Positions 37,903 through 60,847 of a stretch of 64,000 nt of DNA are shown here, piece after piece. Origin of the DNA: an uncultured delta proteobacterium. GTDB taxonomy: Bacteria > Desulfobacterota > Desulfobacteria > Desulfobacterales > SpSt-501. The stretch's first letter is position 1, and the number at the start of each line of letters is the position of its first letter. The stretch covers positions 277,661 to 341,660 of the forward strand of contig CAWAUC010000020.1 in NCBI GenBank assembly GCA_963785045.1, written 5' to 3'. A model generated the notes under the pieces. The model searched no databases, was not told the origin of the DNA, and worked only from the letters and a program-made list of their open reading frames with translations. A program made the translations under genes and the position numbers.

Positions 37903-37941
37903 CAACACCCTTATACAGAGTATTCGGGAAAGGGTTCGGCG

Positions 37942-39704: not shown

Positions 39705-39744
39705 AAATTGAGCGATTCTGTGGATTCACATTTGCAAGACCTTC

Positions 39745-40389
39745 TCAGGCCGTCTGGGCCTTCACCGACACCACATACTTGACCCAGTGGCTGCCGTAGT
39801 GGTCCTCCGCCACAACCCGCAGCGGAAAACCGTGCGCCTCCGGGAGCGGTTCACCGTTCACGGCATAGGCCAGGAACACTTTCTCCTGCCGGACCTCTTC
39901 GATCGTAAACACCTCCTTCTTTTCAAGCAAATCGTCCGAGCTGCGGATTTCAACCCGGGCAACCCCCTCGCGCACCCGCGCGGCCTCCAGAATTTTTCTC
40001 AGCGAAACCCCTTTCCAATCCGCAACAAAAGAGAAGACACCCGGGCAGACCAGCAGCACGCGGCGTTGCATGCTCGGAAGCGCCGCGATGTCTTCATAGC
40101 TTAGTGCCAGCGGCCGATCCACTTCACCGGAGACCTGCAGGCGCCACGTTGCCAGGTCCGCCGTATGCATCGTCTGGCCCATCGTACCGAAGAGCCGGAT
40201 GGGCGTGGCCTCCAGATTGCGGATGTCGAGCTTGGCCGGGTCCTCCTGGAAAAGGGTCGTGGTCCGCGTTCCTTTCGGCAGGATCCTGCGGATCTGGGCC
40301 CTGACGATTCGAACCGCGGGTGAAAGCAGCATGAAAATGGAAGCACACCCACCGAGGAAGCGTTTGACGAAATGCCGTCGCGTATACAT
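39745..40389 (-). CDS. molybdopterin-dependent oxidoreductase (sulfite-oxidase / MsrP-like fold) with Tat-like signal
   Basis: The N-terminus MYTRRHFVKRFLGG resembles a twin-arginine signal. Oxidoreductase_molybdopterin-like blocks are present: WRLQVSGEVDRPLALSYEDI, AYAVNGEPLPEAHGFPLRVV, HWVKYV. Confidence 0.7.
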   Translation of the reverse strand: MYTRRHFVKRFLGGCASIFMLLSPAVRIVRAQIRRILPKGTRTTTLFQEDPAKLDIRNLEATPIRLFGTMGQTMHTADLATWRLQVSGEVDRPLALSYEDIAALPSMQRRVLLVCPGVFSFVADWKGVSLRKILEAARVREGVARVEIRSSDDLLEKKEVFTIEEVRQEKVFLAYAVNGEPLPEAHGFPLRVVAEDHYGSHWVKYVVSVKAQTA

Positions 40390-40541
40390 TGATGTTCCCC
40401 CTTTCGATCGCTTGCCTCTCAAGATAAATCAGGCGCCGTCCAATGAACAGTCCCAGGGGATTTTTTGTGCAGGATATCCGATTCTTGACATCACGCGCGG
40501 TTTGGCTTAGACAAACGCGTCTATCAATTAAGGATGAAACC

Positions 40542-43505: not shown

Positions 43506-44138
43506 TTACTCGACCCGCACCGCCGTGCCGTACGCATACAGCTCGGCCGCACCCTGTGCGATGGAGGAGGTGGAGTAGCGGACGTTGACGACGGCATTCG
43601 CACCCAGCTGGCGCGCCTGCTCCACCATGCGATCGGTGGCCTCCTGCCGGGATTCCTGCAGCAGTTCGGTGTAGCTCTTGATCTCCCCGCCGACGAGGTT
43701 CCGGAAACTGGCCATGATGTCCCGGCCGATGTGCTTGGCCCGGATGGTGCTGCCCGCCACCAGCCCGAAGTGCTCGACAATGGTCTGGCCGGGAATGTTC
43801 TCGACGTTGGTGAGAATAATGTTCCCGGCCGACAGGCGGCTTTTCTTCGGAGCGGCCGACGGGGTTGCGGCAGCCATCTGCAGGCCGGACGGTGGTTCGC
43901 CGGCGCCGGCGACCGGCTTCAGGACGCAAATCGCCCCGGCCGATTCGAATTTGGATTTAAACTTTTCAGCCGTCTCGCCCGCCACCTGCTTGCGCAGAGT
44001 GAAGGGCCGGCCGGAAAACAGCGTCTCCACCGTGCTGGGGTCTTTTTTCAAAACGGACGCGAGCGCCTTTCTGACCTCCCCAGGGTCTTTACCCGGAAGG
44101 ATTTTGCCCTCGAAAACAATATCATAATAGGTTCCCAT
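43506..44138 (-). CDS. YbjQ (UPF0145) family protein with extra N-terminal ~75-aa domain
   Basis: The C-terminal block is VEHFGLVAGSTIRAKHIGRDIMASFRNLVGGEIKSYTELLQESRQEATDRMVEQARQLGANAVVNVRY. By eye, the N-terminal domain YYDIVFEGKILPGKDPGEVRKALASV...AEKFKSKFESAGAICVLK resembles an L7/L12 C-terminal-like fold. Confidence 0.7.
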   Translation of the reverse strand: MGTYYDIVFEGKILPGKDPGEVRKALASVLKKDPSTVETLFSGRPFTLRKQVAGETAEKFKSKFESAGAICVLKPVAGAGEPPSGLQMAAATPSAAPKKSRLSAGNIILTNVENIPGQTIVEHFGLVAGSTIRAKHIGRDIMASFRNLVGGEIKSYTELLQESRQEATDRMVEQARQLGANAVVNVRYSTSSIAQGAAELYAYGTAVRVE

Positions 44139-44283
44139 GCCGCCTCCTGCCTGGCCGATCCGGAATTTTGTTACACCCGAGGGTGAATGTTGAATTAGTA
44201 TCGGTCTTTTCAAAAAAAGGTTTAACCCGAACATTTCATGAAATGTCCGGGTTGACCGGGTGATGAAAGACACGCATCCGACC

Positions 44284-44463
44284 GTCCGCCAAGGCGACTA
44301 TTGGCTGGAGGCTCGGAGGCTGGAACGCCAGGAGGCTAAAAAAAGGCAGAAAAGGTTTTGCTTCAAGCTTCCCAGCTTCCCAGCCTTCTATCTTCGGACC
44401 TAAAACGCATTTACAAAAGCCGCACAACGCCGGATCACGACCTGCGATGCGGTTTTTTTACCC
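44284..44463. repeat. MITE-like intergenic repeat, copy C (core plus degenerate right end)
   Basis: GCCAAGGCGACTATTGGCTGGAGGCTCGGAGGCTGGAACGCCAGGAGGCTAAAAAAA...GCCGCACAACGCCGGATCAC...GGTTTTTTTACCC. It sits about 100 bp upstream of copy D, in tandem orientation. Confidence 0.65.
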
Positions 44464-44563
44464 TGTTAGAAGCATATTCGCTTGACTGAAACACCTGCGA
44501 CCGGCATTATGATCGGCACTCACCGTCGATGGGGCGTAAATGTCGTTTTCGAACCCTCAACAA

Positions 44564-44761
44564 GGTGTCGAAAAACAAGTATCCGGCTGTCAGCCAAGGC
44601 GACTATTGGCTGGAGGCTCGGAGGCTGGAACGCCAGGAGGCTAAAAAAAGCCAGCAAAGGTTTTGCTTCAAGCTTCCCAGCCTTCTATCTTCGGACATAA
44701 AACGCATTTGCAAAAGCCGCACAATGCCGGATCACGGCCTTAGACGCCGTTTTTCAACACC
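44564..44761. repeat. MITE-like intergenic repeat, copy D (full length, 198 bp)
   Basis: It starts GGTGTCGAAAAAC and ends GTTTTTCAACACC, giving 13-bp terminal inverted repeats with 1 mismatch. It contains all segments seen in copies A-C and ends 17 nt before the first ABC ATPase gene. Confidence 0.7.
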
Positions 44762-44777
44762 CTATGTTAAAGAATGG

Positions 44778-45767
44778 ATGGTCTCCGCGCGCATGCTCAG
44801 CATTCGCAACCTCAAGACCTATTTCCGCACCCCCAAGGGTTTGGCCCGGGCCGTGGACGGCGTCAGCCTGGATATCGGTGCAGGCGAGGTCGTGGGCGTG
44901 GTGGGCGAATCCGGGTGCGGCAAATCGGTCATGGCGCTCTCCATCCTGGGCCTCCTGCCCCGCCCGCCCGCCTTTTTCGCCGGCGGCGAGATTATGTTCA
45001 ACGATCAGGACCTTCTGAAATTCACGCCCGATGAGATGCGCCGACTGCGGGGCAATCAGATCAGCATGATCTTCCAGGAGCCCATGTCGGCGCTGAACCC
45101 GGTCTTTACGGTGGGCAACCAGCTGCAGGAGGTATTTCAGGTCCACCGCAACCTCGGCCGGGCCGCAGCGCTGCAGCACGCCATCGACATGCTCGCCAAG
45201 GTGGGGGTCCCCGCCCCGGAACGCCGGGTGCGGGAATACCCGTACCAGCTCTCCGGCGGCATGCGCCAGCGGGTCATGATCGCCATGGCGCTTGCCTGCC
45301 GGCCGGCCCTGCTTTTAGCCGACGAGCCCACCACGGCGCTCGACGTGAGCATCCAGGCCCAGATCCTCGAACTCATGGCGGCGTTGAAAGAAGAGCTCAA
45401 CACCGCGATCCTCCTGATCACCCACGACCTCGGTGTCGTGGCCGAAATCACCCGGCGCGTGGCCGTCATGTACACGGGCAGGATCATGGAGGAGGCGCCG
45501 ACGCTCGATCTCTTCGACGCCCCGCTGCACCCCTACACCCGCGGGCTTTTAACCTCCATCCCGCGCGCCGATGCCTCCTTTGAAACCGAGAGCCTGACGG
45601 AGATCAAGGGGGTCGTGCCCAGTGCGGCGGAGCTTCCGCCGGGCTGCCACTTCGAACCTCGCTGCCCGCAGGCGATCGGCGTCTGCCGGGCCCAGGCGCC
45701 CGCGCTGGAGGAGGCCCGGCCCGGTCATTGGGTGGCCTGCTGGTGCTGGAGGGCGGCCCATGCCTGA
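44778..45767 (+). CDS. peptide/nickel/opine-type ABC transporter ATP-binding protein (OppD/DppD-like)
   Basis: Walker A is GESGCGKS, the signature is [15 protein letters not shown], Walker B is [11 protein letters not shown], and there is a C-terminal oligopeptide-type extension. The start is chosen at [12 protein letters not shown], because the ORF-track 5' part lies inside the repeat. Confidence 0.85.
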
Positions 45768-46815
45768 GCTGCTCACGGTGCGAAACCTGGTCAAGCACTT
45801 TCCGGTGCGGGGGGGATTCCTGGGCCGGCAAAGGGCCGTGGTGCACGCCGTGGACGACGTCTCCTTCAGCCTCGGGGAAAACGAAACCCTGGGGCTCGTA
45901 GGCGAGTCAGGCTGCGGCAAGACCACCACCGGATTCAGCATTCTGCGCCTGATCGAGCCCACCTCGGGCGAGGTTTGGTTTCAGGGCGAGAACCTCCTGG
46001 CGCTTGCGCCGGAACGGATGCGCCACCTGCGGCGCCACATGCAGATCGTCTTCCAGGACCCGTTCGGCTCGCTCAACCCGCGCCTGACCGTGGAGCGGCT
46101 CATCGAGGAGCCGCTGCTCAACCACGAGAACCTGAGCGGGGCGGAGCGCCGCAGCCGAGTGGAGGAGGCGCTCGTCATGGTGGGCCTGCTGCCGGAGCAC
46201 ATGACCCGCTTCCCGCACGAGTTCTCCGGCGGGCAGCGCCAGCGCATCTGTGTGGCCCGGGCGCTCGTACTGCGGCCGCGGCTGGTAATCGGCGACGAGC
46301 CCGTCTCGGCCCTGGACGTCTCCGTGCGCGCCCAGGTCCTGAATCTCATGATCAGGCTCCAGCGCCAGCTCAACCTCTCCTATCTCTTCATCTCGCACGA
46401 CCTGGCGGTCGTCCGCTACGTCAGCCACCGCGTCGGGGTGATGTACCTGGGCCTGATGGTGGAGCTGGCCGCGTCCAAGGAGCTGTATACCCGGCCGCTG
46501 CACCCCTACACCTGGGCCCTGCTCTCCGCCGTGCCCGTGCCCGATCCGCGCCGCGCCCGCCAGCGCATCATCCTCGAGGGCGATGTACCCTCGCCCATGA
46601 ACCCTCCGGCGGGGTGCCGCTTCCACCCCCGCTGCTCGGAGGTCATGCCCATCTGCCGGGAGCAAGCCCCGATCATGCGGGTGGTGGAGAACAATCACGC
46701 AGTCAGATGCCATCTATATGATGAAGATGGCGAACCCTGGAACCCCGCGCCTCCGGTGGTTCGGAAATCTGCGACGGAGGCCGGGGACAAACAAATCGAA
46801 GGAGGACATGCATGA
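45760..46815 (+). CDS. peptide/nickel/opine-type ABC transporter ATP-binding protein (OppF/DppF-like)
   Basis: Begins [14 protein letters not shown]. Walker A is GESGCGKTT, the signature is [15 protein letters not shown], and Walker B is [11 protein letters not shown]. It overlaps the upstream gene by 8 nt. Confidence 0.85.
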
Positions 46816-48311
46816 AAAAGAAAACGGTTGCAACGATTCTGGGAATTTTGCTGGCGCTGGTCCTGGTCGCAGGGCCGGCCCTGGCCAGGGACAAGGGCAC
46901 TCTGGTCGTGGTGCAGGAAGCCGAGCCGGTGGGCCTGGACATCATGCAGAGCTCGATCCAGACCACCATGAGCGTCTGCTACAACATCCACGACACCATC
47001 CTGAAACCCCAGGAGGACGCGACGGTCAAACCGGGTCTGGTGGAAAAATGGCAGAAGGTGGACGATCTGACCTGGAAGTTCACCCTGGTCAAGGGGGCGA
47101 CCTTCCACAACGGCGAGCCGATCAATGCGGCCGCGGTCAAATTTTCCTTTGACCGGCTGATGAGCGATGCGCTCAAAAGCCCCCATAGGGGCAAACTCAA
47201 CCTCTTCAAAGGCGTCGAGGTCATCGACGACCGGACCTTCACGATGTCGACCTCCCAGCCTTATGCACCCGGCCTTTACATGCTCGCTCAGTACCTGTTC
47301 GTCGTGCCGCCGGAGTACATCAAAAAAGTGGGCGATGCCGAATACAACCTCCACCCCGTGGGATCCGGTCCCTACAAGCTGGACAAGTGGGAGAAGGGCC
47401 AGGAGATTGATTTGAGTGCGTATGACAAGTACTACGGTCCCAAGCCGGCTTATAAAAAACTGGTCTTCAAGGGCGTGCCCGAGGAGGCCTCCCGCATCGC
47501 GTCGCTGTTGACCGGCGAGGCGGACGTGATCAGCGGCGTGCCCGTCCAGCAGCGCAAGAAGATCGTGGATTCGGGCAAGGCCTACCTCACCGACCAGATG
47601 GGGTCCATGAACTATCTTGGCCTGAACACCTATGAGAAGCCCTTCAGCGACGTGAGGGTGCGGCAGGCGCTCAACTACGCCATCAACCGCCCGCTGATCA
47701 ACAAAGCCCTGTTCAATAACAAGGCCATCCTCTGCGCCGGCCCCATCAGCCCGCGCACTTTCGGGGCTGATAAAAGCCTGAAGCCCTATCCCTACGATCC
47801 GGCCAAAGCCAAAAAGCTGCTGGCCGCGGCCGGCTACCCGAACGGCTTCGAGACGCGGCTCGCCTACGGCACCTACATGCCCCAGATCCAGGAGCAGGCC
47901 GAGGTCATCGCCTCGGACCTCGCTAAGGTGGGGATCAAGGTGACGCTGGAGCCGTACGAACGCGCCGTCATGTGGGATAGATACAAGAAAAAAATGCACC
48001 AGATGTACATCTACTTCTGGGACGATGCGCCGGAGCCCGACCGCTACATGTACTCCCTGTTCAACTCCAAGAGCCGCGACTACTACTACAAGAACGAGAA
48101 GGTCGATGCGCTGCTGGACAAGGGGCGGAGCACCATGGACCCGGTCGCCCGGGCCAAGGTCTACAACGAGATCGACCGGGTCCTGTACCAGGACGCCCCG
48201 TGGGTTTATCTCTACGTAATCCCCGAGGTCTATGGGGTTGCAAACTCGGTGATCTACAAGGGGTCGCGGGACGGGTATCTGATCATGTGCACGGCCAAAC
48301 CGAGGAAGTAA
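46812..48311 (+). CDS. ABC transporter substrate-binding protein, family 5 (peptide/nickel/opine)
   Basis: 499 aa with the signal peptide [25 protein letters not shown]. Family-5 blocks are present: [42 protein letters not shown]. Confidence 0.85.
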
Positions 48312-48312
48312 A

Positions 48313-48431
48313 AGCCATCCTGCTGCGCAGGATGGCTATATAGGGTTCGAGGGGTCGAGGGGTCAAGGGTAAAAGAAAACAGATAGACCTTCTGTTCACT
48401 TGACCCCTGGAACCCTTGGACCCTTGAACCC
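48313..48431. repeat. stem-loop plus octamer-based inverted-repeat element inside the ABC operon
   Basis: An 11-bp perfect hairpin, AGCCATCCTGC-TGC-GCAGGATGGCT, sits right after the SBP stop. It is followed by GGTTCGAG GGGTCGAG GGGTCAAG ... CTTGACCCCTGGAACCCTTGGACCCTTGAACCC, which are imperfect inverted arms. Confidence 0.55.
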
Positions 48432-48504
48432 TTAAGCCTCAAGGCGCCAACTTCCGCCGGTGTATCGCTTTCTTTAACCACAAAGGCAGGCAACGAACTC
48501 CATC

Positions 48505-49431
48505 ATGGGCCGTTACCTACTCAAAAGACTGTGGCATACGGTCTACGTGGTCGTGGGCATCTCGATCATCAGCTTCTTCTTCATCCACCTGTCGGGGGAC
48601 CCGGTGATGCTCATGCTGCCGGGTGATGCCTCCATGGCGGAAGTCGAGACCTTGCGCCAGCAGCTGGGGTTCAACGACCCGCTCTATGTTCAGTATTGGC
48701 GCTTCGCCGGCCGGGCGCTGACGGGCGATCTCGGCGTATCTCTTTACCATCGCGTGCCTGCTATCAGCCTGATCATGGAGCGGCTGCCGGCAAGCCTCGA
48801 ACTCGCCGGCGCCGCCATGCTGATCGCGCTGGTCGTCGCCATCCCGCTGGGGATTATTTCAGCGGTCAAGCGCGGCTCGCTCTGGGACACGGGCTCGATG
48901 CTGGGGGCACTCTTCGGGCTCTCCATGCCCCATTTCTGGCTCGGGATCATGCTGATTTTGCTTTTTTCCGTGACCCTGGGATGGCTGCCCACCTCGGGCC
49001 GCGGCACGCTTGCCCAGCTCGTCATGCCCTCCATCGCGCTGGGCCTGAGCCTGATGGCCATGTTCGCGCGCCTCACCCGCTCGGTGATGCTGGAGGTCCT
49101 GAGCCAGGACTACGTGCGGACCGCCCGGGCCAAGGGACTGCGCGAAAAAATCGTCATCGGCAAGCATGCCCTCAAGAACGCCCTGATCCCGCTCGTGACC
49201 GTAGCCGGCATGCAGTTCGGGTTTCTCATCGGCGGCACCGTCATCATCGAAACCGTGTTCGCCTGGCCGGGCGTGGGCCGCCTGGTGGTGCAGGCCATCT
49301 TCAGCCGGGATTACCCCCTCGTGCAGGCGACGGTGCTGGTGCTCTCCGTGATTTTCGTGGCCGTCAATCTGCTGGTGGATCTGATTTATCTCTACCTCGA
49401 TCCCCAGATCAGCTACCTGGAGCAGAAATGA
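48505..49431 (+). CDS. ABC transporter permease (DppB/OppB-like)
   Basis: 308 aa beginning MGRYLLKRLWHTVYVVVGISIISFF. The EAA-type loop is DYVRTARAKGLREKIVIGKHALKNALIP. Confidence 0.85.
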   Translation: MGRYLLKRLWHTVYVVVGISIISFFFIHLSGDPVMLMLPGDASMAEVETLRQQLGFNDPLYVQYWRFAGRALTGDLGVSLYHRVPAISLIMERLPASLELAGAAMLIALVVAIPLGIISAVKRGSLWDTGSMLGALFGLSMPHFWLGIMLILLFSVTLGWLPTSGRGTLAQLVMPSIALGLSLMAMFARLTRSVMLEVLSQDYVRTARAKGLREKIVIGKHALKNALIPLVTVAGMQFGFLIGGTVIIETVFAWPGVGRLVVQAIFSRDYPLVQATVLVLSVIFVAVNLLVDLIYLYLDPQISYLEQK

Positions 49432-50345
49432 GCCGACCGGCCGCATCTTCCGAAAGATTCCGGCACCTGCGGGCCTCGCTCAGGCTGTGGGGGGAAACCC
49501 TGCGCGAGCTCGCCCGCTCCCCCGGCGCCGTGGCCGGTGGGATCCTGTTCGCGCTCATCATCGTCACGAGCCTTTGCTTCCAGCTTTTTTATACGAAGGA
49601 CCCCCTGGCCCAGGATCTGCTCGCCCGGTTGACGCCGCCGTTCTGGCAGACGGGGGGCAGCCTCGCCTATCCCCTGGGCACCGACAACCTCGGCCGGGAT
49701 GTGCTGGTGCGGATCCTCTACGGCAGCCGGGTCAGCCTGATGGTGGGTTTCTCCTCCGTGCTCGTCGCCTGCGGGGCGGGCATCGCCCTGGGCCTTATCT
49801 CGGGCTACTATGGCGGCCGGGTGGACAATGTCATCATGCGCCTGGCCGACGTCTTCATGGCCTATCCCTTCATGCTGCTCACCATCTCCATCATCGCCGT
49901 GCTGGGCAACTCCATATTCAACCTCATCCTCGTGCTGGGCCTTTCGGACTGGGTCACCTACGCCCGCACCATCCGCGGCAGCGTGCTCAGCATCAAGAAA
50001 AAAGAGTTCGTGCTGGCCGCCCGCAGTGTGGGCACCCGCAACCGGGTGATCCTGCTGCGGCACGTCTTCCCCAATGTGCTCTCCCCCATCCTGGTGCTCG
50101 GCACCGTGCGGGTCGCCAACATCATCATCTGGGAAAGCGGCCTGTCGTTTCTCGGCATGGGGGTGCCCCCGCCCATGCCCACCTGGGGCCGCATGCTGGC
50201 CGAGGGCCGGGTGTACATCACGGATGCCTGGTGGCTGGTAACGCTGCCGGGGCTGGCCATCATGCTGACCATTCTCTCGATCAACCTCCTGGGCGACGGC
50301 CTGCGGGATGCGCTGGACCCGCGCCTCAGGAACATACCCCGGTAA
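49428..50345 (+). CDS. ABC transporter permease (DppC/OppC-like)
   Basis: The start is MSRPAASSERF at 49428, with an ATGA overlap. The blocks GTDNLGRDVLVRILYG and EFVLAARSVGTRNRVILLRHVFPN are present. The ORF-track 5' extension to 48696 is an out-of-frame shadow over the previous gene. Confidence 0.85.
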   Translation: MSRPAASSERFRHLRASLRLWGETLRELARSPGAVAGGILFALIIVTSLCFQLFYTKDPLAQDLLARLTPPFWQTGGSLAYPLGTDNLGRDVLVRILYGSRVSLMVGFSSVLVACGAGIALGLISGYYGGRVDNVIMRLADVFMAYPFMLLTISIIAVLGNSIFNLILVLGLSDWVTYARTIRGSVLSIKKKEFVLAARSVGTRNRVILLRHVFPNVLSPILVLGTVRVANIIIWESGLSFLGMGVPPPMPTWGRMLAEGRVYITDAWWLVTLPGLAIMLTILSINLLGDGLRDALDPRLRNIPR

Positions 50346-50366
50346 CACAGGAAAGGAACCCGTATA

Positions 50367-51536
50367 ATGAAAGTGCTTGTTTTGGGTCTCGGGCTTCAAG
50401 GCAAAGCCGCCATCCACGATCTCGAACAAAGTGATGCGGTATCGGAAATTGTGGCGGCGGACGCGGCGGTGGAACAGGCGCGGGCCTATGTCGACCGCAA
50501 AGCCTACCGCAAGGTCCGGGTGGTGCACGTGAACGCCTCCGAACCGGCGCTCATGGAGCAGCTGGTCCGGGAAAGCCGGCCGCAGGTCGTGGTCTGCATG
50601 CTGCCGGCGGACTTCCAGCCGCGGCTGGCCCGGGCGGCCCTCGACGCCGGCGTTTCCTACGTCAGTTCGAGCTACACCGGAGAGCTGGTCGAACTCGACC
50701 GTTTGGCCAAAGAGAGGGGGGTGACCATTTTGCCCGAGATGGGCATGGATCCGGGGATCGACCTGATGCTGGGCCGACTCGCCGTAGACGAGTTGGACGT
50801 GGTGCACGGCCTGCGTTCTTATGGAGCCGGGCTGCCGGAGCCGGGCTGCGCCGCCGACAACCCGATCGGCTACAAAATCACCTGGACCTTCGAAGGGGTC
50901 CTCAAGGCCTACATGCGGCCGGCCCGCTTCCTGCGGGACGGGAAGGAGGCGGCCATCCCCGCCGGGCAGATCTTCCGCCCGGAAAACGGCCACCCGCTGG
51001 AGGTGCCGGGAGTCGGCACCATGGACGCCTACTACAACGGGGACGCCATCCGCTACATCGACATCTTCGGGCTTGGGCCGGAGCTCAAGGAGATGGGCCG
51101 CTTCGCCATGCGCTGGCCCGGCCACAACCAGTTCTGGAACGTGATGGCGGAGCTGGGCTTCCTGGACGAGGCCGCGGACCGGGTCGGCGGGGCCGAGATA
51201 TCGCCCCGCCGGTTCGTTGTCGAGCATCTCACTCCCCGCCTGCAGTTCCGCGACACCGAGCGCGACATGGTCATCATTCGCGTCGAGGCCTGGGGGTTAA
51301 AAAACAGCCGGCCGCTGCGGGTCGCCTATGAACTGATCGACTACCGGGATCTGGCTTCCGGTCTTTTCGCCATGAACCGCGCGGTCGGATTCACCACCAG
51401 CATCGGCGCCCAACTGATCCTGGCCGGCAAGATTCAAAAGGCAGGCGTGCTCACGCCGGTCCGCGACGTACCGGCCCTGGAGGTGGTGCGCGAGTTGGAG
51501 AAGCGCGGCATGAAGGTCCAGCGCCGGGTGGAATGA
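50367..51536 (+). CDS. saccharopine dehydrogenase family protein (SDH-domain-like)
   Basis: The Rossmann motif is MKVLVLGLGLQG. The protein is collinear with the C-terminal (SDH) half of eukaryotic AASS (GMDPGIDLML, GGLPEP-like AGLPEPGCAADNPIGYKITW, MVIIRVEAWG). Confidence 0.8.
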   Translation: MKVLVLGLGLQGKAAIHDLEQSDAVSEIVAADAAVEQARAYVDRKAYRKVRVVHVNASEPALMEQLVRESRPQVVVCMLPADFQPRLARAALDAGVSYVSSSYTGELVELDRLAKERGVTILPEMGMDPGIDLMLGRLAVDELDVVHGLRSYGAGLPEPGCAADNPIGYKITWTFEGVLKAYMRPARFLRDGKEAAIPAGQIFRPENGHPLEVPGVGTMDAYYNGDAIRYIDIFGLGPELKEMGRFAMRWPGHNQFWNVMAELGFLDEAADRVGGAEISPRRFVVEHLTPRLQFRDTERDMVIIRVEAWGLKNSRPLRVAYELIDYRDLASGLFAMNRAVGFTTSIGAQLILAGKIQKAGVLTPVRDVPALEVVRELEKRGMKVQRRVE

Positions 51537-52897
51537 AGAGGGTTCAAGTGGAGAGGCCCGGGACGTTCACCACTGAAATTCTCGCAGACTATACCCTGCG
51601 CCTGCGCGCCGAGGATCTGCCGGCGGCAACCGTGGAGACGGTGCAGCGCTGTGTGCTGGATCTGCTGGGGGCCGCCGCGGCCGGCACGCCGTCGGAGGCG
51701 GCCTCGATGGCGCGGACCGTTGCGGCTCGGCTGGGCGGCGCGGGCAGTGCGGATATCTGGTTCGGCGGCGACCGGCGCCAGGCCGCTGCTGCCGCGTTCG
51801 CCAACAGCGCGGCAGCGAGCGCACTGGACCTGGACGACGGTCACCGCGCCGCCGGCGGGCATCCGGGTGCCGCCGTCATCCCGGCCGTGTTCGCCATGGC
51901 GGAGGAGGAAGCCGCCGGATGGCCTGAGATCCTGGCAGCGGTGGTAGCCGGCTACGAGGTGGGCGTACGCGTGGCCGCCGCACGGGATTTCTCCGCCCTC
52001 GACACCCTCGCAACCGGCCGTTGGTGCGGTTACGGGGTGGCGGCGGCGGCAAGCCGCTTGCGCCGGCTCTCGACCCGGCAGACCGCCGAAGCCATGGCGC
52101 TGGCCGGAGTCCTGTCCCCGGGGCTTTCCGCCGCCGGCTACAGCCGGGTGATGGGCAATCACGCCAAGGAGGGCATCCCCTGGGCGACGCTGACCGGTCT
52201 TTTGGCGGTCGAACTTGCCGCGCAGGGCTTCACCGGCCCGCTGGACATCCTGGACCATCGCGGGTATTACGATGCGGAACAAATCCGGGCGGGGCTCGGG
52301 GAAAACTTTGCCGTGGACGGTGTCTATTTCAAACCCTACGCGTGCTGCCGCTGGATCCACGCTGCCATCGACGGGCTGTGCAGCCTGGTGCAGCAGAACC
52401 GCATCCAGGTGGCCGATATTCGCTCAATCGAGGTGCACACGTTTGGAAGAGCGCTGCGGCTGAACAACTACCCTGACCCCGCGAATCTCGAGTCCGCCCA
52501 GTACAGCGTGCCCTTCTGCCTGGCGGCTGCCGCGGTGGAAGGGAAAAACGGGCTTCTGCCGATGCGGGCAAGCCTGCTGCACCGGTCGGACATCGTGACG
52601 CTGGCAGGCCGGGTGTCCCTGCACATGGATGCCGGGCTGGACCGGATGTTCCCGGAGTGCACCGCCGCACGGGTGGTTATCGGGACCGAGCGGCAGCGAC
52701 TTGAAGGCTACTGCCCTCACCCGCTGGGCGATCCGGCCAACCCCATGGACTGGGCGATGCTGGTGGGAAAATTCCAGCATCTGACGCAGGGGCTTCTGCC
52801 GGAAGCACGGCAAAAAGATATAATCAGGGCCGTTCAGTCGCTGCCGAGCCAGGGGCTGGCGTCGCTCCAAAATTATCTATCCGAACCTTTCGGCTGA
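51533..52897 (+). CDS. MmgE/PrpD family protein
   Basis: 454 aa with the family blocks VLDLLGAAAAG and ALDLDDGHRAAGGHPGAAVIPAVFAMAE, plus a C-terminal PrpD-type domain. An ATGA overlap joins it to the upstream gene. Confidence 0.8.
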   Translation: MKRVQVERPGTFTTEILADYTLRLRAEDLPAATVETVQRCVLDLLGAAAAGTPSEAASMARTVAARLGGAGSADIWFGGDRRQAAAAAFANSAAASALDLDDGHRAAGGHPGAAVIPAVFAMAEEEAAGWPEILAAVVAGYEVGVRVAAARDFSALDTLATGRWCGYGVAAAASRLRRLSTRQTAEAMALAGVLSPGLSAAGYSRVMGNHAKEGIPWATLTGLLAVELAAQGFTGPLDILDHRGYYDAEQIRAGLGENFAVDGVYFKPYACCRWIHAAIDGLCSLVQQNRIQVADIRSIEVHTFGRALRLNNYPDPANLESAQYSVPFCLAAAAVEGKNGLLPMRASLLHRSDIVTLAGRVSLHMDAGLDRMFPECTAARVVIGTERQRLEGYCPHPLGDPANPMDWAMLVGKFQHLTQGLLPEARQKDIIRAVQSLPSQGLASLQNYLSEPFG

Positions 52898-52941
52898 ACG
52901 CGTGGTGGTATCGATAAATTTTGAAAGGGGAGAGGGAATCG

Positions 52942-54264
52942 ATGAAAGTGGGTGTCAGAAACGAAGACAAAAGCAAATGGGAGCGCAGGGTGCCGCTGGT
53001 GCCCGCCGACCTTACGGCCCTGAGAGATGCCGGCGTCGACGCCGTGGTGCAGACCAGCGCCCACCGGGCCTTTACCGATGACGAATTCGACCAGGCCGGG
53101 GTGCTCATCCAAAAAGACCTGGGCGACTGCGATATCATCATCGGCATCAAGGAAATTCCTCCTGCCAAGCTGGAGGCCGGCAAGGTGTATCTCTTCTTTC
53201 CCCACGTCATCAAGGGCCAACCGGCCAACATGCCCATGCTGCAGCGCCTGATGGAGCTTAAGTCCACCCTGGTGGACTACGAGCGCATCGTGGACGAGAA
53301 AAACCGCCGCCTGATTTTTTTCGGCCGCCACGCCGGCCTGGCCGGCATGATCAACACGCTGTGGTCGCTCGGCCGACGCCTGGACGTCGAAGGCATCCCA
53401 TCGGCCTTCGGCCGCCTGAAACAGGCCCGGGCCTATGCCGACCTGTCGGGTGCACGGGAGGATCTGGGAAGAATCGCCGAGCGTATCGTTGCCGACGGGG
53501 TCCCCGAGGCGATCCACCCCCTGGTGGTGGGCTTTACCGGGTACGGCAACGTGTCCCAGGGCGCCCAGGAGATCCTGGACCTGCTGCCCGTCCAAACGAT
53601 TTCACCCCTTGAGCTTAAAAACCTGGCGCATGACCGCACCCAGGATGCTCGGGTAATCTACAAGGTCGTGTTCAAGGAGTCCGACCTGGTGGAACGGATA
53701 GAGGCGGGCAAGGGCTTCGATCTGGATGATTACTTTCGCCGGGGGGCCGGCGGCTATCGGAGCGTTTTCGACCGCTACCTGAACGATCTCTCCGTTTTGG
53801 TCAACTGCATCTACTGGGATCCGCGCTACCCGCGGTTGATTACCCTGCCCCAGTGCCGCGCCCTTTGGGCGGACGGCCAAAGCCCCAAGCTCAAGGTCAT
53901 CGGCGACATCAGCTGCGACGTCAACGGCTCGGTCGAATGCACCGTCAAGCCTACCGGCCCGGGAAACCCGGTGTACGTCTATGATCCCGCTACCGGCAAG
54001 GAGCAGGACGGCTTCGAGGGCCACGGCCCGGTCATGATGGCCGTGGAAATCCTGCCCTCTGAAATCCCCCGCGAATCCTCCATCGACTTCAGCCGTGTTC
54101 TAAAGGAGTTCCTGCCGCACCTGGCAACGGCCGATATGTCGAAGAGCTTCACCGAGCTCGCGCTGCCTCCGGAACTCAAGCGCGCCGTGATCGTTTACCG
54201 GGGCGAGCTGACACCCGACTATGCCTACTTGAAATCATTTCTGGCACCTACTGCGCGGCCCTGA
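52942..54264 (+). CDS. lysine-ketoglutarate reductase-like protein (AlaDH/PNT N-terminal domain, LOR/SDH conserved region)
   Basis: Collinear with the N-terminal LKR half of AASS (RNEDKSKWERRVPLVP, YLFFPHVIKGQPANMPMLQRLMELKSTLVDYERIVDE, FFGRHAGLAGMIN, FTGYGNVSQGAQEI, NCIYWDPRYPRLIT, IGDISCDVNGSVE). Confidence 0.75.
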   Translation: MKVGVRNEDKSKWERRVPLVPADLTALRDAGVDAVVQTSAHRAFTDDEFDQAGVLIQKDLGDCDIIIGIKEIPPAKLEAGKVYLFFPHVIKGQPANMPMLQRLMELKSTLVDYERIVDEKNRRLIFFGRHAGLAGMINTLWSLGRRLDVEGIPSAFGRLKQARAYADLSGAREDLGRIAERIVADGVPEAIHPLVVGFTGYGNVSQGAQEILDLLPVQTISPLELKNLAHDRTQDARVIYKVVFKESDLVERIEAGKGFDLDDYFRRGAGGYRSVFDRYLNDLSVLVNCIYWDPRYPRLITLPQCRALWADGQSPKLKVIGDISCDVNGSVECTVKPTGPGNPVYVYDPATGKEQDGFEGHGPVMMAVEILPSEIPRESSIDFSRVLKEFLPHLATADMSKSFTELALPPELKRAVIVYRGELTPDYAYLKSFLAPTARP

Positions 54265-54328
54265 GAGCCCAGGGCCGCGTTCAGCATCGAGATGAACTTA
54301 CAATTTCGCTTTGATCTTTGCTGATATA

Positions 54329-54482
54329 AGAAGTGGTTTCACAACCTCGGATCACACCCGAGGGCAAGGCGCATGCCGATTCAAAAGCGCAGCAACCCTG
54401 GCAGGTTGTGGCATTTCGAGAGGCCTGCAATCCCGCCATGGCGGGACCATCCGGCGTCAGAAGGGGATATGAAACCACTTCT
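54329..54482. other. 154-nt element closed by 13-bp perfect inverted repeats (structured RNA or MITE; unclassified)
   Basis: AGAAGTGGTTTCA...TGAAACCACTTCT forms the closing pair. Internal hairpins are CCTCGG-ATCACAC-CCGAGG and CCCGCC-AT-GGCGGG, with a long-range CACAACCT/AGGTTGTG pairing. A third partial arm copy (AATAAGTGGTTCGCACCTGCC) lies at 54637-54657. Confidence 0.4.
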
Positions 54483-54673
54483 GTCCATGATCCGCTCGCT
54501 TTTCTAAACTGTCACTCTATCCTGCGCAGAATCCGGTTCTCCGATCATCCCGCAGCCCTCCCTGCAGCCTTCAACGAAAGGGAAAAATGCCTGAATCCAA
54601 CTTGATATCAAATTATCGGCGCAAAATGTCATGTTAATAAGTGGTTCGCACCTGCCACCACTCCATGAACAAC

Positions 54674-54703
54674 TTGACATGTACATACATATGTGCATAT
54701 CAT
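54674..54703 (+). promoter_or_regulatory. candidate brnTA promoter with palindromic spacer
   Basis: The sequence is TTGACA-N18-TATCAT. The spacer contains the palindromes ATGTACAT and ACATATGT, and the ATG lies 9 nt after the -10 element. Confidence 0.35.
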
Positions 54704-54711
54704 GAGGTACC

Positions 54712-54978
54712 ATGTTTGAATGGGATGAATCAAAAGCCAATTTGAATAAGTCCAAGCACGGGATTTCTTTTGCCGATACATTTGCAGTCTTCGAGGACCC
54801 AAATGCCGTGACTGTTGAGGAATTTCAAGGAGGTGAGCAACGTTACGTCACCATTGGCATGGATGCATTTGGCCGCGTACTCGTGGTGGTTTTCACATGG
54901 CGGGAGGACAACATTCGAATAATTTCTGCACGCAAGGCAGTGCGTTACGAGGTGAACCAATATGAAGGCGAGATATGA
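54712..54978 (+). CDS. brnT: BrnT-family ribonuclease toxin (DUF497)
   Basis: MFEWDESKANLNKSKHGISFADTFAVFEDPNAV...RIISARKA is the typical BrnT pattern. The toxin-first order with an overlapping brnA is also typical. Confidence 0.8.
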   Translation: MFEWDESKANLNKSKHGISFADTFAVFEDPNAVTVEEFQGGEQRYVTIGMDAFGRVLVVVFTWREDNIRIISARKAVRYEVNQYEGEI

Positions 54979-55216
54979 TTTTAGCAAAGGTAAGCGAGGT
55001 GCGGTAATTCCCGCAGCCGGCAATAAGGTTCGGATCACAATACGGCTTGATCGAGACATAATCGATTGGTTTCGATCCAAGGTCGAAGAACAAGGCGGAG
55101 GCAACTACCAAACGATGCTCAATGATGCCCTCCGAGCATATATGGAACATCAGGATCAGCCACTTGAAGAAGTAATTCGCCGTGTTGTCAGGGAGGAGTT
55201 ACACACTGCTCAATAA
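54962..55216 (+). CDS. brnA: BrnA antitoxin
   Basis: YDFSKGKRGAV...ITIRLDRDIIDWFRSKVEEQGGGNYQTMLNDALRAYM is the typical BrnA (RHH-like) pattern. Confidence 0.8.
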   Translation: MKARYDFSKGKRGAVIPAAGNKVRITIRLDRDIIDWFRSKVEEQGGGNYQTMLNDALRAYMEHQDQPLEEVIRRVVREELHTAQ

Positions 55217-55299
55217 TGGCAATTGCGAACACGCCGTTCAAGCGGACGCCAAACAGCAGGCGCCGCTTAACTTTCAGTTAGACCTCACTCGGATAACTC

Positions 55300-56178
55300 A
55301 TGCAAATCGAAGTTCAGATCGTGAATGCCTTCATTGACGGCGCAACCGGCGGCAACCCCGCCGGGGTTGTGGTTGATGCGAATGCGTTGACCACGGCGCA
55401 GAAGCTGAAAGTCGACCGACAGGTCGGGCTGTCTGAAACCGCCTTCGTTTCGGCGTCAAACACCGCGACCATCAAACTCGAGTTCTTCACTCCAACGCGA
55501 CAGATTGCCCACTGCGGGCACGCCACCATTGCCGCCTTTTCGCTCCTGCGACAACTTGGAGTCGTCGGTGAAGGCCACCTTTCCAAAGAAACGATCGATG
55601 GCAACAGGGACATCCTCGTAGAAGGTGAACTGGCCTTCATGGAGCAACGCGCCCCGAAGTACACCCCAGTTCCAGTTGCGTCCGAACTGTGCGGCCGAGT
55701 TGTCGCGTCTCTGGGCCTTGCGAAAACCCGGTTGCTGAGCGGAACCGGTCCGTTTGTGGTCAATACCGGGAACTCCTTCCTTCTCGTCCCGTTACTCGAC
55801 GAGCAGTCGGTGGCCGAACTGCGGCCACACTTTCGCTTGGTCGAGTCGCTCAGCGATGAGTTGGATCTGATCGGGTACTTCGTGTTCTCTATGACGACGA
55901 AAGTACGGGGCCGTCACGCAGGAGCACGAATGTTTGCTCCACGGTTTGGAATATCAGAGGAAGCAGGAACAGGAATGGCGGCAGGACCACTTGCGTGTTT
56001 TCTCCACGATCGCCTCGGGGTTGCGGAACGGGAGATACTCATTGAACAGGGCTGGTTGATGAATCCACCGTCGCCCAGTGTCATCAAGGTTGTTCTCGAA
56101 CTTGCCGATGGCGAGATCTCGCGCCTTATGGCTGGAGGCACTGCCCGTGCAATGTCGTCTTTGCGGGTTGAGGTCTAA
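55300..56178 (+). CDS. PhzF-family isomerase
   Basis: 292 aa with VNAFIDGATGGNPAGVV, GLSETAFV, FFTPTRQIAHCGHATIA and ISEEAGTGMAAGPLACFL. Confidence 0.8.
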   Translation: MQIEVQIVNAFIDGATGGNPAGVVVDANALTTAQKLKVDRQVGLSETAFVSASNTATIKLEFFTPTRQIAHCGHATIAAFSLLRQLGVVGEGHLSKETIDGNRDILVEGELAFMEQRAPKYTPVPVASELCGRVVASLGLAKTRLLSGTGPFVVNTGNSFLLVPLLDEQSVAELRPHFRLVESLSDELDLIGYFVFSMTTKVRGRHAGARMFAPRFGISEEAGTGMAAGPLACFLHDRLGVAEREILIEQGWLMNPPSPSVIKVVLELADGEISRLMAGGTARAMSSLRVEV

Positions 56179-56237
56179 CAGCCGTTTCCAACGGACGGCG
56201 CTGCGCGCCACCGCTGAACCGGATCGTTATGTTTTCT

Positions 56238-57577
56238 GGTTCTTCTCCGGATTAGTTGTAGAAAGCCTGGTAAATTTTCAGTGTAAAGTAGCGTAAGTCA
56301 TGGAAGCCATAGGCCTTGCGTTTGATGACTTTGATCTTGTTATTCACCCCTTCCAGTTTGCCTGTGTGGATGGGGTAATCACAGTGGTTTAGGATGCCAT
56401 AGCGATGGCGCTCCAGCATCTTGGCAAACCTGTTTAGGGCACGGTGATTCAGTGAACGGGCCAGCGCACACCACTCATCCAGCGATTTACCGGCCCAAGT
56501 GCGGGATTGGTAAGACCAGATAGCTTGAGTTGGTCTTTTAAAATCATCACCGTGTTGATAACCTCGTTTAGATTCAGCAGTTCTTTGAGTTGCTCACGGT
56601 GCTTCTTGCGGCGCACATTGGCTCGGTTCTTCAACAACAGATACTTGGAGCCTTTAAAGACCTGCTTGTTGTGTGCGGCCGCTTTGCGGTACTCGCTGTT
56701 TCGGATTTTATCGATAACCCGGCTGAAGGCGGCCACGACATGGAACTGGTCAAAGACGATGAAGGCCTGGGGCAGTTTTTTTTAACGGCGTTTATATACG
56801 GGTCCCACATGTCCATGACGACAGCCTCAATTGCTTTTCGCTGCTTGGCCGTCAACTGCTTGAAGAATCGGTTCAACGTCTTGGCCTTGCGATGCCGGCC
56901 GACATAAACAACACGGCCGGTCTGGTAGTCCAAGCACCACGGTCAGGTAACTGTGCCCTTTGCGGATGGAGATCTCATCCACCGCCAGGATACGAAGCCC
57001 ATTGAGATCCGGCTGGCCGTAGTGGGCCTCCAGATACTGCTTGTCGATGTCTTTGACCGTTTTCCAGTCCAGCTGAAAGTGCCGGGCGACATCGGTAACC
57101 GTCATCACCTTGCACAGCTTATGGATCTCGGCGGCCAAGTCTCCGAGTAACCCGCAGATACGGGTGAAAAAGCTCCAGATCCTCGATGCTGATTTTTTGG
57201 CAATGGGCACAGAGAAGCTTGCGGTACTCGCAACGCAGCCAGACCTGGGTACTGGCCAGGTTCAGATCCCGTACCGAGCGTTGGGCCCAGCTATGGACAC
57301 TGGAGGAGCCTTCTTCCCACAAATATGACAGACAGGTTGGAACCGCTGGTCGGGTACCACATCGATAACCGCTTTTGTGGCAGCGGGGTCCACGGCCTGT
57401 TTGGTAATTTTGATTCGACGAAAGGGGAAATACGGTGATATAGAGATTCCGGACATCGCAGGCCTCCTTCTTAGGATATGGTTTTTCTTAGCCGATCAAC
57501 CTATATCCTCGGAGATACCGGATGTCCATTCTGTTTGATATCACACCATATTGCCCACTTTCGTTTCAGCTAACCTG
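56238..57577 (-). mobile_element. ISL3-family insertion sequence, degenerate (1340 bp) with 8-bp target-site duplication
   Basis: The terminal inverted repeats are GGTTCTTCTCCGGATTAG and CTAACCTGGAGAAGATCC (15/18 match). The element is flanked by the direct repeat TGTTTTCT (56230-56237 and 57578-57585). Confidence 0.8.
56252..57456 (-). pseudogene. ISL3-family transposase, at least 5 frameshifts
   Basis: Collinear pieces lie in different frames: PDQRFQPVCHICG (zinc finger), VRDLNLASTQVWLRCEYRKLLC, LAVDEISIRKGHSYLTVV, GRHRKAKTLNRFFKQL, MDMWDPYINAVKK, HRALNRFAKMLERHRYGILNHCDYPIHTGKLEGVNNKIKVIKRKAYGFHDLRYF. Confidence 0.8.
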
Positions 57578-57629
57578 GAGAAGATCCTGTTTTCTAAATT
57601 GGGTTGGATGTAATCATGTCAAAATGTGA

Positions 57630-58949: not shown

Positions 58950-59049
58950 ACATAACCATTTCCTGCACCAGACCGGTGTTCCGCTGCCGCCACACACCGG
59001 CAGGTGAGAAATAGCGTTAGCCAAAAAAAATGACCGATAGAGGAAGAAT

Positions 59050-59313: not shown

Positions 59314-59351
59314 AAGTTGAATATCGCTCGGAGCGCCTAAATCGGAACGGA

Positions 59352-60740: not shown

Positions 60741-60847
60741 GTCAAGGCCGTCGTGGCTGCCGAACGATGAGCATGACTTTTCATTCCAGCGGATGCCTCA
60801 CGGCGCCTCTGGATTCAGGCTTTGCCAATTCCATGAACACTTCTCTC

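Follow-up and report, generated by a model that had tools for sequence, protein, structure and literature searches.

When the genes for a peptide-type importer are followed directly by homologs of the two halves of the saccharopine pathway enzyme, with a member of the MmgE/PrpD superfamily between them, what is imported and what becomes of it? This question is raised by an eight-gene operon at positions 44778-54264 (+ strand) of a 64,000-nucleotide (nt) stretch of contig CAWAUC010000020.1, from an uncultured delta proteobacterium of the Desulfobacterales; this whole stretch is called the window here. The operon couples the five genes of an ABC (ATP-binding cassette) importer, in the order D-F-A-B-C, to genes for a saccharopine dehydrogenase-like (SDH-like), a divergent PrpD-like and a lysine-ketoglutarate reductase-like (LKR-like) protein. 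We find that it brings known enzyme families together with a new branch of the PrpD family, in a conserved combination that to our knowledge has not been described. With a probability of roughly 0.45, we propose that the operon would serve to import a polycarboxylated secondary amine of the saccharopine, opine or aminopolycarboxylate type and to cleave it oxidatively at a C-N bond. The catabolic direction, the order of the steps, the reaction of the PrpD-like protein and the substrate class are what we infer in this proposal.

Open reading frames (ORFs), Pfam domains, starts, stops and spacers bear out the eight tightly packed genes, their families and their coordinates as given in an initial annotation of the sequence. 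All eight lie on the + strand, and for the three enzymes the sequence makes the fold evident. At the 5' end are two ATPases, D (44778-45767; 329 amino acids, aa), of the DppD/OppD/GsiA N-half type with ABC_tran and oligo_HPY domains, and F (45760-46815; 351 aa), by Pfam of the DppF/GsiA C-half type, which overlaps D by 8 nt. An ATGA overlap links F to the periplasmic family-5 solute-binding protein A (46812-48311; 499 aa; SBP_bac_5, E 2.7e-95). A spacer of 193 nt separates this gene from permease B (48505-49431; 308 aa; BPD_transp_1 and BPD_transp_1_N), which in turn shares an ATGA overlap with permease C (49428-50345; 305 aa; BPD_transp_1 and OppC_N). The enzyme genes follow: the SDH-like gene (50367-51536; 389 aa; Sacchrp_dh_NADP and Sacchrp_dh_C) after 21 nt, the PrpD-like gene (51533-52897; 454 aa; MmgE_PrpD_N and MmgE_PrpD_C) joined to it by an ATGA overlap, and the LKR-like gene (52942-54264; 440 aa; AlaDh_PNT_N) 44 nt after the PrpD-like gene. 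The 21-nt gap between importer and SDH-like gene and the SDH-like/PrpD-like overlap are thus exactly where the initial annotation had placed them. With overlaps of 8, 4, 4 and 4 nt and the spacers of 21 and 44 nt, the 193-nt spacer is the sole long one. The start of the LKR-like gene is most likely the ATG at 52942, judging from a strong GGGGAGAGGG ribosome-binding site 8 nt upstream of it; the TTG at 52921, where the ORF opens, is a less likely start than this ATG.

The extent to which this arrangement is shared by other genomes was examined by searching contigs from one genome per species with a PrpD-like profile. From 164 confirmed relatives we retained the 80 best loci, each with flanks of up to 10 kb. 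The eight window proteins were mapped onto these loci by tblastn, while ORFs of at least 150 aa were clustered and the recurring clusters named by Pfam and NCBIfam. An importer was counted when at least four of the five D-F-A-B-C genes were present at 50% identity or more. Of the 61 loci whose upstream flank is 7 kb or longer, 42 have such an importer 5' of the PrpD-like gene, an arrangement far beyond chance. The proposal in the initial annotation that the enzymes are hard-wired to a family-5 importer thus holds in many genomes. An SDH-like gene is found upstream on the same strand in 48 of the 80 loci (44 of 72 when the flank is required to span 2.6 kb or more). The LKR-like gene is rarer, being found downstream in 19 of the 80 loci, adjacent and on the same strand in 12 and convergent in seven. 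Among the 62 loci with adequate flanks, 12 have both SDH-like and LKR-like genes, 27 the SDH-like gene only, two the LKR-like gene only (both beside a trp operon) and 21 neither. The widespread conserved core is therefore the importer with the SDH-like and PrpD-like genes, and the LKR-like gene is an accessory to it. Since the genes neighboring the operon in the window are not conserved in any of the 80 loci (the flanking PhzF-like, YbjQ, IlvD and M48 genes have a counterpart in 0 of 80), the unit can be bounded at 44778 and 54264.

The closest related loci are from Desulfobacteraceae and Desulfatibacillum genomes. In a quick maximum-likelihood tree, rooted at the midpoint and built from 78 PrpD-like proteins after removal of three fragments, the window falls in an eight-member clade with a Shimodaira-Hasegawa-like approximate likelihood ratio (SH-aLRT) support of 99; an adjacent LKR-like gene is present in all eight members, and an SDH-like gene in all those with enough flank. 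The contiguous SDH-PrpD-LKR triad occurs in seven of the 80 loci (L002, L003, L004, L007, L008, L014 and L034), all of this clade, and consequently it is a unit only there and not the generally conserved unit. The initial annotation had pointed to the two halves of AASS being split by a PrpD-like gene. The split is indeed present in the window, but it is not a general design, the triad being confined to the eight-member clade. As the triad is rare and LKR-SDH pairs also exist without PrpD (see below), the position of the PrpD-like gene between the two enzyme halves is best seen as a local rearrangement and not as a design principle. One of the triad loci (L003) comes from a record titled as a Hyphomicrobiales metagenome-assembled genome (MAG), with permeases 89-91% and SDH, PrpD and LKR proteins 67-74% identical to those of the window. 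Its placement inside the Desulfobacterales clade indicates either a recent transfer or a mis-binned contig.

The PrpD-like protein scores 170 and 128.6 bits against the two Pfam domains of the MmgE/PrpD superfamily (gathering score 32.1 each) and is thus a member of it. It has many homologs at 50-98% identity, and an ESM Atlas look-up returned only clusters named 'MmgE/PrpD family protein'. Its closest solved relative is the iminodisuccinate (IDS) epimerase of Agrobacterium tumefaciens BY6 (2HP0, E 5.7e-25 over residues 12-435); the IRG1/CAD structures rank below it, and the PDB matches of the protein at E 1e-5 include no chain of a 2-methylcitrate dehydratase. Excerpts of PMC12290011 give the active-site set of the family as His88, Glu91, His102, Tyr148, His152, Lys202 and Lys266 (numbering of the P. 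aeruginosa methylsuccinate isomerase), and state that all characterized members use enolate chemistry on dicarboxylates. For IDS epimerase, Tyr145 and His150 are named in excerpts of PMC6789909. We aligned seven members of the subfamily with three canonical paralogs from the window's own genome, with the motifs at the published spacing. The equivalents of Glu91, His102 and Lys266 are kept in the PrpD-like protein, as D99, H110 and K267, whereas His88 is replaced by S96, His152 by L159 (the 'WH' motif being deleted) and Lys202 by N209, and the Tyr148 position is held, depending on the alignment, by S154 or L156 and not by a tyrosine. The pairwise alignment to 2HP3 agrees in this respect, with Tyr145 and His150 of IDS epimerase aligned to Ser154 and Leu159. 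The replacement of these four of the seven canonical residues is common to all seven subfamily members, two alphaproteobacterial ones included. In their stead the subfamily has new invariant residues, including H104, R105, R146, R151, D152, D157, R163, K212 and R273. The PrpD-like proteins thus form a distinct branch with a predicted rebuilt, strongly basic pocket.

This divergence of the active site means that the reaction cannot be read off from homology, and hence we do not file the protein as an IDS epimerase. The two share a two-domain architecture, and IDS epimerase works in the breakdown of a secondary-amine polycarboxylate; besides the four replaced residues, they differ in that NAD(P)-dependent dehydrogenases or flavin oxidases accompany the PrpD-like protein, with no gene for a C-N lyase. 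The window's own genome has four more full-length MmgE/PrpD matches, one of them only in a 276-aa open frame (L090-L093, at C23:60404-61117, C23:71636-72346, C18:22342-23067 and C8:309404-310147). Three of these (L090, L092 and L093) carry the canonical motifs, and the protein of the operon scores lowest of the five against the Pfam model. L092 and L093 lie directly downstream of genes for TctA-like tricarboxylate transporters, which suggests further, uncharacterized carboxylate pathways in the same organism.

The company kept by the PrpD-like genes also bears on their function. A C-N-cleaving oxidoreductase accompanies them in 61 of the 80 loci: an SDH-like protein in 48, a DAO-domain protein resembling the beta subunit of sarcosine/opine oxidases in 15, and both in two. 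Nine of the 15 DAO loci also encode an alpha-like protein with Pyr_redox_2, SO_alpha_A3 and BFD domains. In L058 and L076 the gene order is SDH, PrpD, DAO and alpha-like partner, so that the flavoprotein pair occupies exactly the slot of the LKR-like gene in the window. There is also a single 843-aa fusion, in which the first 440 residues are PrpD-like (48% identical) and the last 370 form a DAO domain; no fusion of PrpD-like to SDH or LKR was seen among 8000 scored candidates, which is weak evidence of absence. Both alphaproteobacterial clades of the PrpD-like tree are without SDH-like genes. One of them (nine loci, e.g. from Gemmobacter and Aquamicrobium) combines the same importer with an IclR regulator and a hydantoinase/oxoprolinase. 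The other (16 loci) has IclR with the sarcosine/opine-oxidase-beta-like DAO protein and, in many loci, the alpha-like partner, an ectoine-hydrolase-like M24 enzyme, an amidase and TRAP (tripartite ATP-independent periplasmic) or other transporters. These associations point to a PrpD-like protein that would work in sequence with a C-N-oxidizing enzyme, NAD(P)-dependent in anaerobes and flavin-dependent in aerobes. Further companions across the 80 loci are an aldehyde:ferredoxin oxidoreductase 3' of the PrpD-like gene in six, IclR regulators in 23 and, between the SDH-like and PrpD-like genes of 32, a fusion of an HTH_3 and a DctP domain, which we predict to be a cytoplasmic regulator with a sensor of a carboxylate-binding family. 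An example of this fusion is the gene at L029:8796-9995.

The SDH-like protein is a member of its family by Pfam (Sacchrp_dh_NADP 59 bits, Sacchrp_dh_C 173.5 bits) and matches no NCBIfam model. In PDB it recovers yeast Lys9 (2AXQ, 1.1e-33), saccharopine reductase (1E5L, 3.9e-33) and the SDH domain of AASS (5L76, 1.6e-32), with these matches spanning only residues 2-287 of its 389, while 3ABI matches over the full length. It is the only gene for a Sacchrp_dh_C protein in its genome. Five loci (L013, L024, L031, L036 and L044) have tandem SDH-like pairs. SDHs that adjoin stand-alone LKRs are 36-38% identical to it; one of these, the partner in L104, shows 38% identity over the full length and matches the same PDB entries at the same level as the SDH-like protein of the window. 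The SDH half was probably recruited to a substrate other than lysine-derived saccharopine.

The LKR-like protein aligns end to end, through its residues 4-433, with residues 27-465 of the LKR domain of human AASS (8DDA, E 8.5e-67), in keeping with the collinearity with the LKR half of the eukaryotic enzyme that the initial annotation had stated; its AlaDh_PNT_N domain scores 83.7 bits. Its R16, K70 and H88 align with R18, K77 and H96 of yeast Lys1 (3UGK), and we take Arg18 of the yeast enzyme to be the arginine that binds the substrate carboxylate. For Lys77 and His96, a role as the catalytic acid-base pair of Lys1 is indicated by the title of a study cited in PMC9490328. The gene is present in a single copy in its own genome and, that genome counted, in seven of 401 genomes evenly sampled across the phylum. 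In the six others, examined over 19 kb each, the LKR has an SDH-family neighbor without PrpD in two, a convergent PrpD-like gene in one (L108) and neither in three. LKR and SDH thus appear to be a mobile two-gene lysine module in some genomes. In five genomes where the core has no LKR beside it, an LKR-like gene lies elsewhere in two, and this query gave no match in the other three; it seems from this that the SDH-like gene of the cluster mostly works without any LKR. One MAG (L039 and L010) has two convergent pairs of PrpD-like and LKR-like genes, one inside a full importer-SDH cluster and the other standing alone beside a trp operon and a gene for 3-deoxy-D-arabino-heptulosonate 7-phosphate (DAHP) synthase; a like pair lies beside the trp operon in L026. 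In comparison with the saccharopine enzymes proper (AASS, the LKR and SDH of Ruegeria pomeroyi, and Lys1/Lys9), the LKR-like protein is collinear with human LKR and keeps the catalytic Lys and His, the SDH-like protein has both Sacchrp_dh domains and the Lys9/AASS matches, and the two are encoded by separate genes, as in bacteria. What sets the operon apart is that a PrpD-family gene lies between them, that all three are part of an importer operon, and that the SDH-like protein, with 36-38% identity to LKR-paired SDHs, is found in most relatives with PrpD-like and without LKR.

With two oligo_HPY ATPases, an SBP_bac_5 binding protein whose N-terminus looks like a signal peptide in the translation, and two BPD_transp_1 permeases (one with OppC_N), the importer is of the Dpp/Opp/Nik/Gsi type. 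ATPase D has OppD and DppD as its best NCBIfam models, both under their cut-offs, and is 53-80% identical across the 42 related loci with the same importer. ATPase F just passes the dipeptide ATPase subfamily NF008453 (408.6 bits, cut-off 408) and shares 55% identity with the C-terminal half of GsiA from E. coli. Among the permeases, only B exceeds a curated threshold, namely the one for Opp2B, the 'nickel ABC transporter permease' (354.8 bits, cut-off 350), whereas for permease C the models Opp4C, Opp2C and NikC all stay under theirs. The binding protein reaches no NCBIfam cut-off, its best model being GsiB (196 bits, cut-off 594), with NikA at 164 bits (cut-off 393), and it is 30% identical to E. 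coli GsiB. Its best PDB matches are, in order, 5U4O, for which a literature search located no ligand and, as the one paper naming it, an unrelated vaccine study, YliB/GsiB (1UQW) and the agropinic-acid binder AgaA (6HLX); DppA, HbpA, AccA and NikA are further relatives. As a whole the importer is neither a GsiABCD equivalog (GsiB 196/594, GsiA 283.7 and 357.7/1077, GsiC 296.6/463, GsiD 241/484 bits) nor, permease B excepted, a nickel or metallophore importer (NikA 164/393, Opp5A_nikA 164/600, CntA 111/800; NikC and Opp2C under cut-off). We thus assign it to a Gsi/Dpp/Nik type with a ligand that is not readable from its sequence. In the related loci the binding protein is 66-88% identical, compared with 50-69% for the enzymes, and this better conservation suggests one shared ligand. 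The E. coli iaaA-gsiABCD operon likewise has ATPase, binding protein and two permeases adjoining an enzyme gene, iaaA, which precedes them; here the ATPase is split into two genes, the binder is only distantly similar and other enzymes are attached. Since that operon also runs ATPase, binding protein, permease, permease, the ATPases-first order, which the initial annotation had called unusual, is not so.

Taken together, these observations allow a tentative pathway to be proposed. The Gsi-like importer would bring in an N-(carboxyalkyl) amino acid, and the SDH-like enzyme would use NAD(P)+ to cut its CH2-NH bond, as saccharopine dehydrogenase does, yielding an amino acid and an aldehyde. The LKR-like enzyme would act on the N-C-alpha bond that joins an amine to a 2-oxo acid, either forming or cleaving it, and might thereby offer a second cleavage route or feed lysine-like amines into the same path. 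The PrpD-like protein would take and return a proton beside a carboxylate of the substrate or an intermediate by enolate chemistry, and could so epimerize, isomerize or eliminate, letting the dehydrogenases act. The flavin amine oxidases of the relatives are one-way oxidative enzymes, which argues for breakdown, and the aldehyde:ferredoxin oxidoreductase fits the removal of the aldehyde from an SDH-type cleavage. DctP domains bind carboxylates, and substrate-sensing regulators fit catabolism. Further support comes from the aminopolycarboxylate substrate of IDS epimerase, the solved relative nearest to the PrpD-like protein, and from the presence of the opine binder AgaA and the glutathione binder YliB among the structural relatives of the binding protein. 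Thus, of the saccharopine-, opine- or aminopolycarboxylate-like substrate put forward in the initial annotation, the broad class fits, given the C-N-cleaving enzymes in 61 of 80 loci, while no specific substrate can be named; its view that this is something other than plain peptide import is supported. It had also not recognized the operon as a described pathway, and full-text searches, with most subscription journals outside their scope, found no matching paper, nor any relevant one on PrpD with saccharopine or on a bacterial LKR-SDH operon.

A functional parallel can be drawn with the opine catabolic regions of Agrobacterium Ti plasmids, where an opine importer goes with the opine oxidase OoxAB/NoxAB. 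They follow the same logic, in that an importer is dedicated to the compound, an N-(carboxyalkyl) amino acid is cleaved by oxidation and a regulator senses the ligand. Their AgaA ranks third among the PDB matches of the binding protein, and the PrpD-like genes of the relatives adjoin flavoproteins that are presumably similar to OoxB and OoxA. In the window the cleaving enzymes are instead NAD(P)-dependent dehydrogenases from two different families, as would suit an anaerobe. We know of no described opine pathway with a PrpD-family enzyme, and none was found in literature searches.

Several points weigh against this proposal. With the equivalents of His88, Tyr148, His152 and Lys202 gone, epimerase chemistry is only weakly suggested for the PrpD-like protein, which may have a quite different role. 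The LKR-like protein keeps every feature of a true LKR that was checked, and pairs of LKR and SDH exist without PrpD, so that lysine catabolism is possible for this operon. Moreover, the LKR-like and SDH-like enzymes attack the same nitrogen of saccharopine, and the need for both on one compound is not self-evident. In the alphaproteobacterial loci with oxidases, amidases, M24 hydrolases and hydantoinases, the PrpD-like proteins are only 45-55% identical, and these loci may serve other substrates. The binding protein, by its distant similarity to GsiB and its lack of a curated match, appears compatible with peptides or glutathione-like ligands as well. Finally, no regulator was found beside the operon in the window, and its genome has no ortholog of the HTH-DctP protein, ordinary TRAP binding proteins being the only DctP members there; 'inducible' as a description of this operon is therefore borrowed from its relatives.

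The main rival is ordinary lysine catabolism through saccharopine, fed by import of peptides or lysine, with the PrpD-like protein in an unrelated or minor side job. Here the LKR-like enzyme would form saccharopine from lysine and 2-oxoglutarate, the SDH-like enzyme would yield glutamate and 2-aminoadipate semialdehyde from it, and peptides containing lysine would be the cargo of the importer. A bacterial saccharopine pathway is established in Ruegeria pomeroyi, according to excerpts of PMC4334477. The collinearity of the LKR-like protein with human LKR and its three conserved residues, the SDH-like matches to Lys9 and AASS at about 1e-33, a level equal to that of an SDH beside a stand-alone LKR, the sole copies of both families in a genome assembly of 5.46 Mb that is 97.8% complete, and ATPases and permeases of the Dpp/Opp/Gsi type are all as one would expect from it. 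However, in most carriers the SDH-like enzyme probably cannot be fed from lysine, because the loci with SDH-like and without LKR-like outnumber those with both (27 against 12 of 62), and three of the five core genomes without an adjacent LKR gave no LKR match anywhere with the query used. It is the PrpD-like gene, translationally coupled to the SDH-like gene through the ATGA overlap, and not LKR, that is the constant partner; LKR-like genes are rare in the phylum (7 of 401), and an opine-oxidase-like pair can hold their slot (L058, L076). This explanation thus agrees with the clade to which the window belongs but not with most carriers, and we regard it as unlikely overall. That the PrpD-like protein is a 2-methylcitrate dehydratase or another tricarboxylate enzyme that came to lie beside the importer by chance is far less probable still, and close to negligible. 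The family's Pfam domains are present and JGI labels many homologs '2-methylcitrate dehydratase PrpD', but the linkage with importer and SDH-like gene is conserved in dozens of loci across families, and the same genome has the four other PrpD-family genes, of which the three that were read carry canonical motifs. With 34.8 bits against a cut-off of 950 for the PrpD equivalog, an IDS epimerase as the closest structure, four of seven residues replaced and neither prpB nor prpC nearby in the window, the 2-methylcitrate dehydratase assignment was rejected.

Two further readings invoke metal chelators. In one, the operon would synthesize an opine-type chelator and take it up again, following the logic of the staphylopine cnt system: the SDH-like enzyme would couple aspartate semialdehyde reductively to an amino acid, in the way that its relative carboxynorspermidine dehydrogenase uses amines, the PrpD-like protein would epimerize, the LKR-like enzyme would cap the product with a 2-oxo acid and the family-5 importer would return the metal complex. 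These enzyme families are reversible, with Lys9 and Lys1 working biosynthetically in fungi, and nickel and opine metallophores are imported through family-5 systems. Permease B exceeds the Opp2B nickel cut-off, NikA, CntA, CntD and CntF are among the weaker matches of the importer, the binding protein has NikA-type binders among its PDB matches, and no obvious downstream catabolic enzyme is part of the core. The staphylopine locus of Staphylococcus aureus (cntKLM-cntABCDF-cntE) similarly ties a family-5 importer to three opine-handling enzymes, and CntA, CntD, CntF and CntC are all weak NCBIfam matches here. But the scores are far from those of true members (CntA 111/800, CntD and CntF about 230 against 380-385, NikA 164/393 bits), the enzyme families are unrelated, and the operon has no nicotianamine-synthase-like, octopine-dehydrogenase-type or exporter gene. 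Nor is there a metal-sensing regulator, those of the relatives being of the HTH-DctP and IclR types. In the relatives the LKR-like protein is replaced by, or PrpD-like is fused to, flavin oxidases, which cannot work in the biosynthetic direction, and the aldehyde oxidoreductase lies 3' of PrpD-like in six loci. Words beginning with 'Deltaproteobacteria' or 'Desulfo' are absent from the main text of PMC7438024, on opine zincophore clusters, which there cites saccharopine dehydrogenase only as a comparison enzyme. We consider such a biosynthetic role quite improbable.

The other chelator-based reading, which we hold to be a speculative outside chance, reverses the direction and has the operon break down, or strip of metal, chelators of the nicotianamine or opine type under anaerobic conditions, e.g. 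nicotianamine, mugineic-acid phytosiderophores or the staphylopine-like metallophores of neighbors. Such chelators are tricarboxylates with CH2-NH-CH(COOH) links, some with a terminal opine cap, and enter cells via family-5 importers. An SDH-type cut of each aminobutyrate link would yield aspartate semialdehyde and an amino acid, and such repeated cuts would explain the tandem SDH-like duplicates in five loci. The LKR-like enzyme, or in aerobes the opine-oxidase-like pair, would remove the 2-oxo-acid cap where present, and a cap that is present only sometimes would explain why the LKR-like gene is optional. The remodeled PrpD-like protein would perform a new reaction on the tricarboxylate, e.g. 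epimerization or ring opening. We know of no microbial degradation pathway for chelators of this type. About a quarter of the probability we leave to a cause outside all the readings considered here.

As regards expression, the 504-nt region 5' of gene D has a sole promoter-like site, a candidate sigma-70-type promoter at 44482-44513 (+ strand), which a consensus scan recovered as TTGACT-17-CATTAT overlapping CTGAAA-16-TATGAT, with 9 of 12 matches. Within the operon, a palindromic hairpin of 11 pairs (48313-48337, assigned to neither strand) lies in the 193-nt A-B spacer directly after the binding-protein gene and may stabilize the upstream transcript, as such hairpins after binding-protein genes usually do. 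Scanned against Rfam with E values up to 1 allowed, positions 43900-55300 yielded two chance-level matches only, and no lysine riboswitch. Three metatranscriptome runs contain short contigs (60-370 nt, 95-99% alike) from close relatives that touch the binding-protein gene, permease C and small bits of the SDH-like and PrpD-like genes; with DNA carry-over possible and no significance attached to the stretches left uncovered, these are at most a weak hint that the operon is transcribed.

The promoter-like site is flanked by two direct copies, 90-92% alike, of an element of about 199 nt (44259-44457 and 44564-44754). The genome yielded 190 first-look candidates for this element, with at least 40 scored copies at 85-95% identity. 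The element is a dispersed repeat of intergenic regions, similar to repetitive extragenic palindromes or miniature inverted-repeat transposable elements (REP/MITE-like), and occurs at very high depth in metagenome and metatranscriptome contigs. Just past the stop codon of the LKR-like gene is an element of about 160 nt (54329-54482) with 36-nt terminal inverted arms, also with at least 40 scored copies in the genome (82-93% identity, from 148 candidates). It belongs to a second dispersed family, with no sequence relation to the first. After the operon (54265-64000) the G+C content falls from about 0.63 to 0.41-0.55. Genes for a PhzF-family isomerase (55300-56178), a SIR2_2-domain protein (57630-58949) and a DUF1254/DUF1214 protein (61456-62973) lie there. 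Since none of them is conserved beside the operon in relatives, this region may be a foreign or defense-related insert. On the other side, 5 kb 5' of the operon, is a complete TRAP transporter (DctP, DctQ and DctM, 36790-39704), behind which come a molybdopterin-oxidoreductase-domain gene (39745-40422, - strand) and ilvD (40443-42236). In the relatives, none of these genes (36790-42236) showed a link to the operon.

At least 48 species-representative genomes carry the cluster, mostly those of sulfate reducers and their relatives, in which it would mark a nutrient or chelator that anaerobes take from sediments and wet soils. Current annotation hides it behind the labels 'peptide transporter', 'saccharopine dehydrogenase' and '2-methylcitrate dehydratase'. 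Cultured carriers include Desulfacinum infernum (DSM 9756, locus L021), Gemmobacter megaterium (DSM 26375), Aquamicrobium defluvii (DSM 11603), Pelagibius litoralis and Mesorhizobium species. Of these, D. infernum has the core together with a convergent LKR, while G. megaterium and A. defluvii have the importer and the PrpD-like gene but no SDH. The distribution of the LKR-like and SDH-like genes indicates that the halves of AASS serve bacteria as separate, mobile modules. The MmgE/PrpD superfamily, for its part, gains a large uncharacterized branch with a rebuilt active site and partners that cut C-N bonds, which would be a starting point for finding a new reaction.

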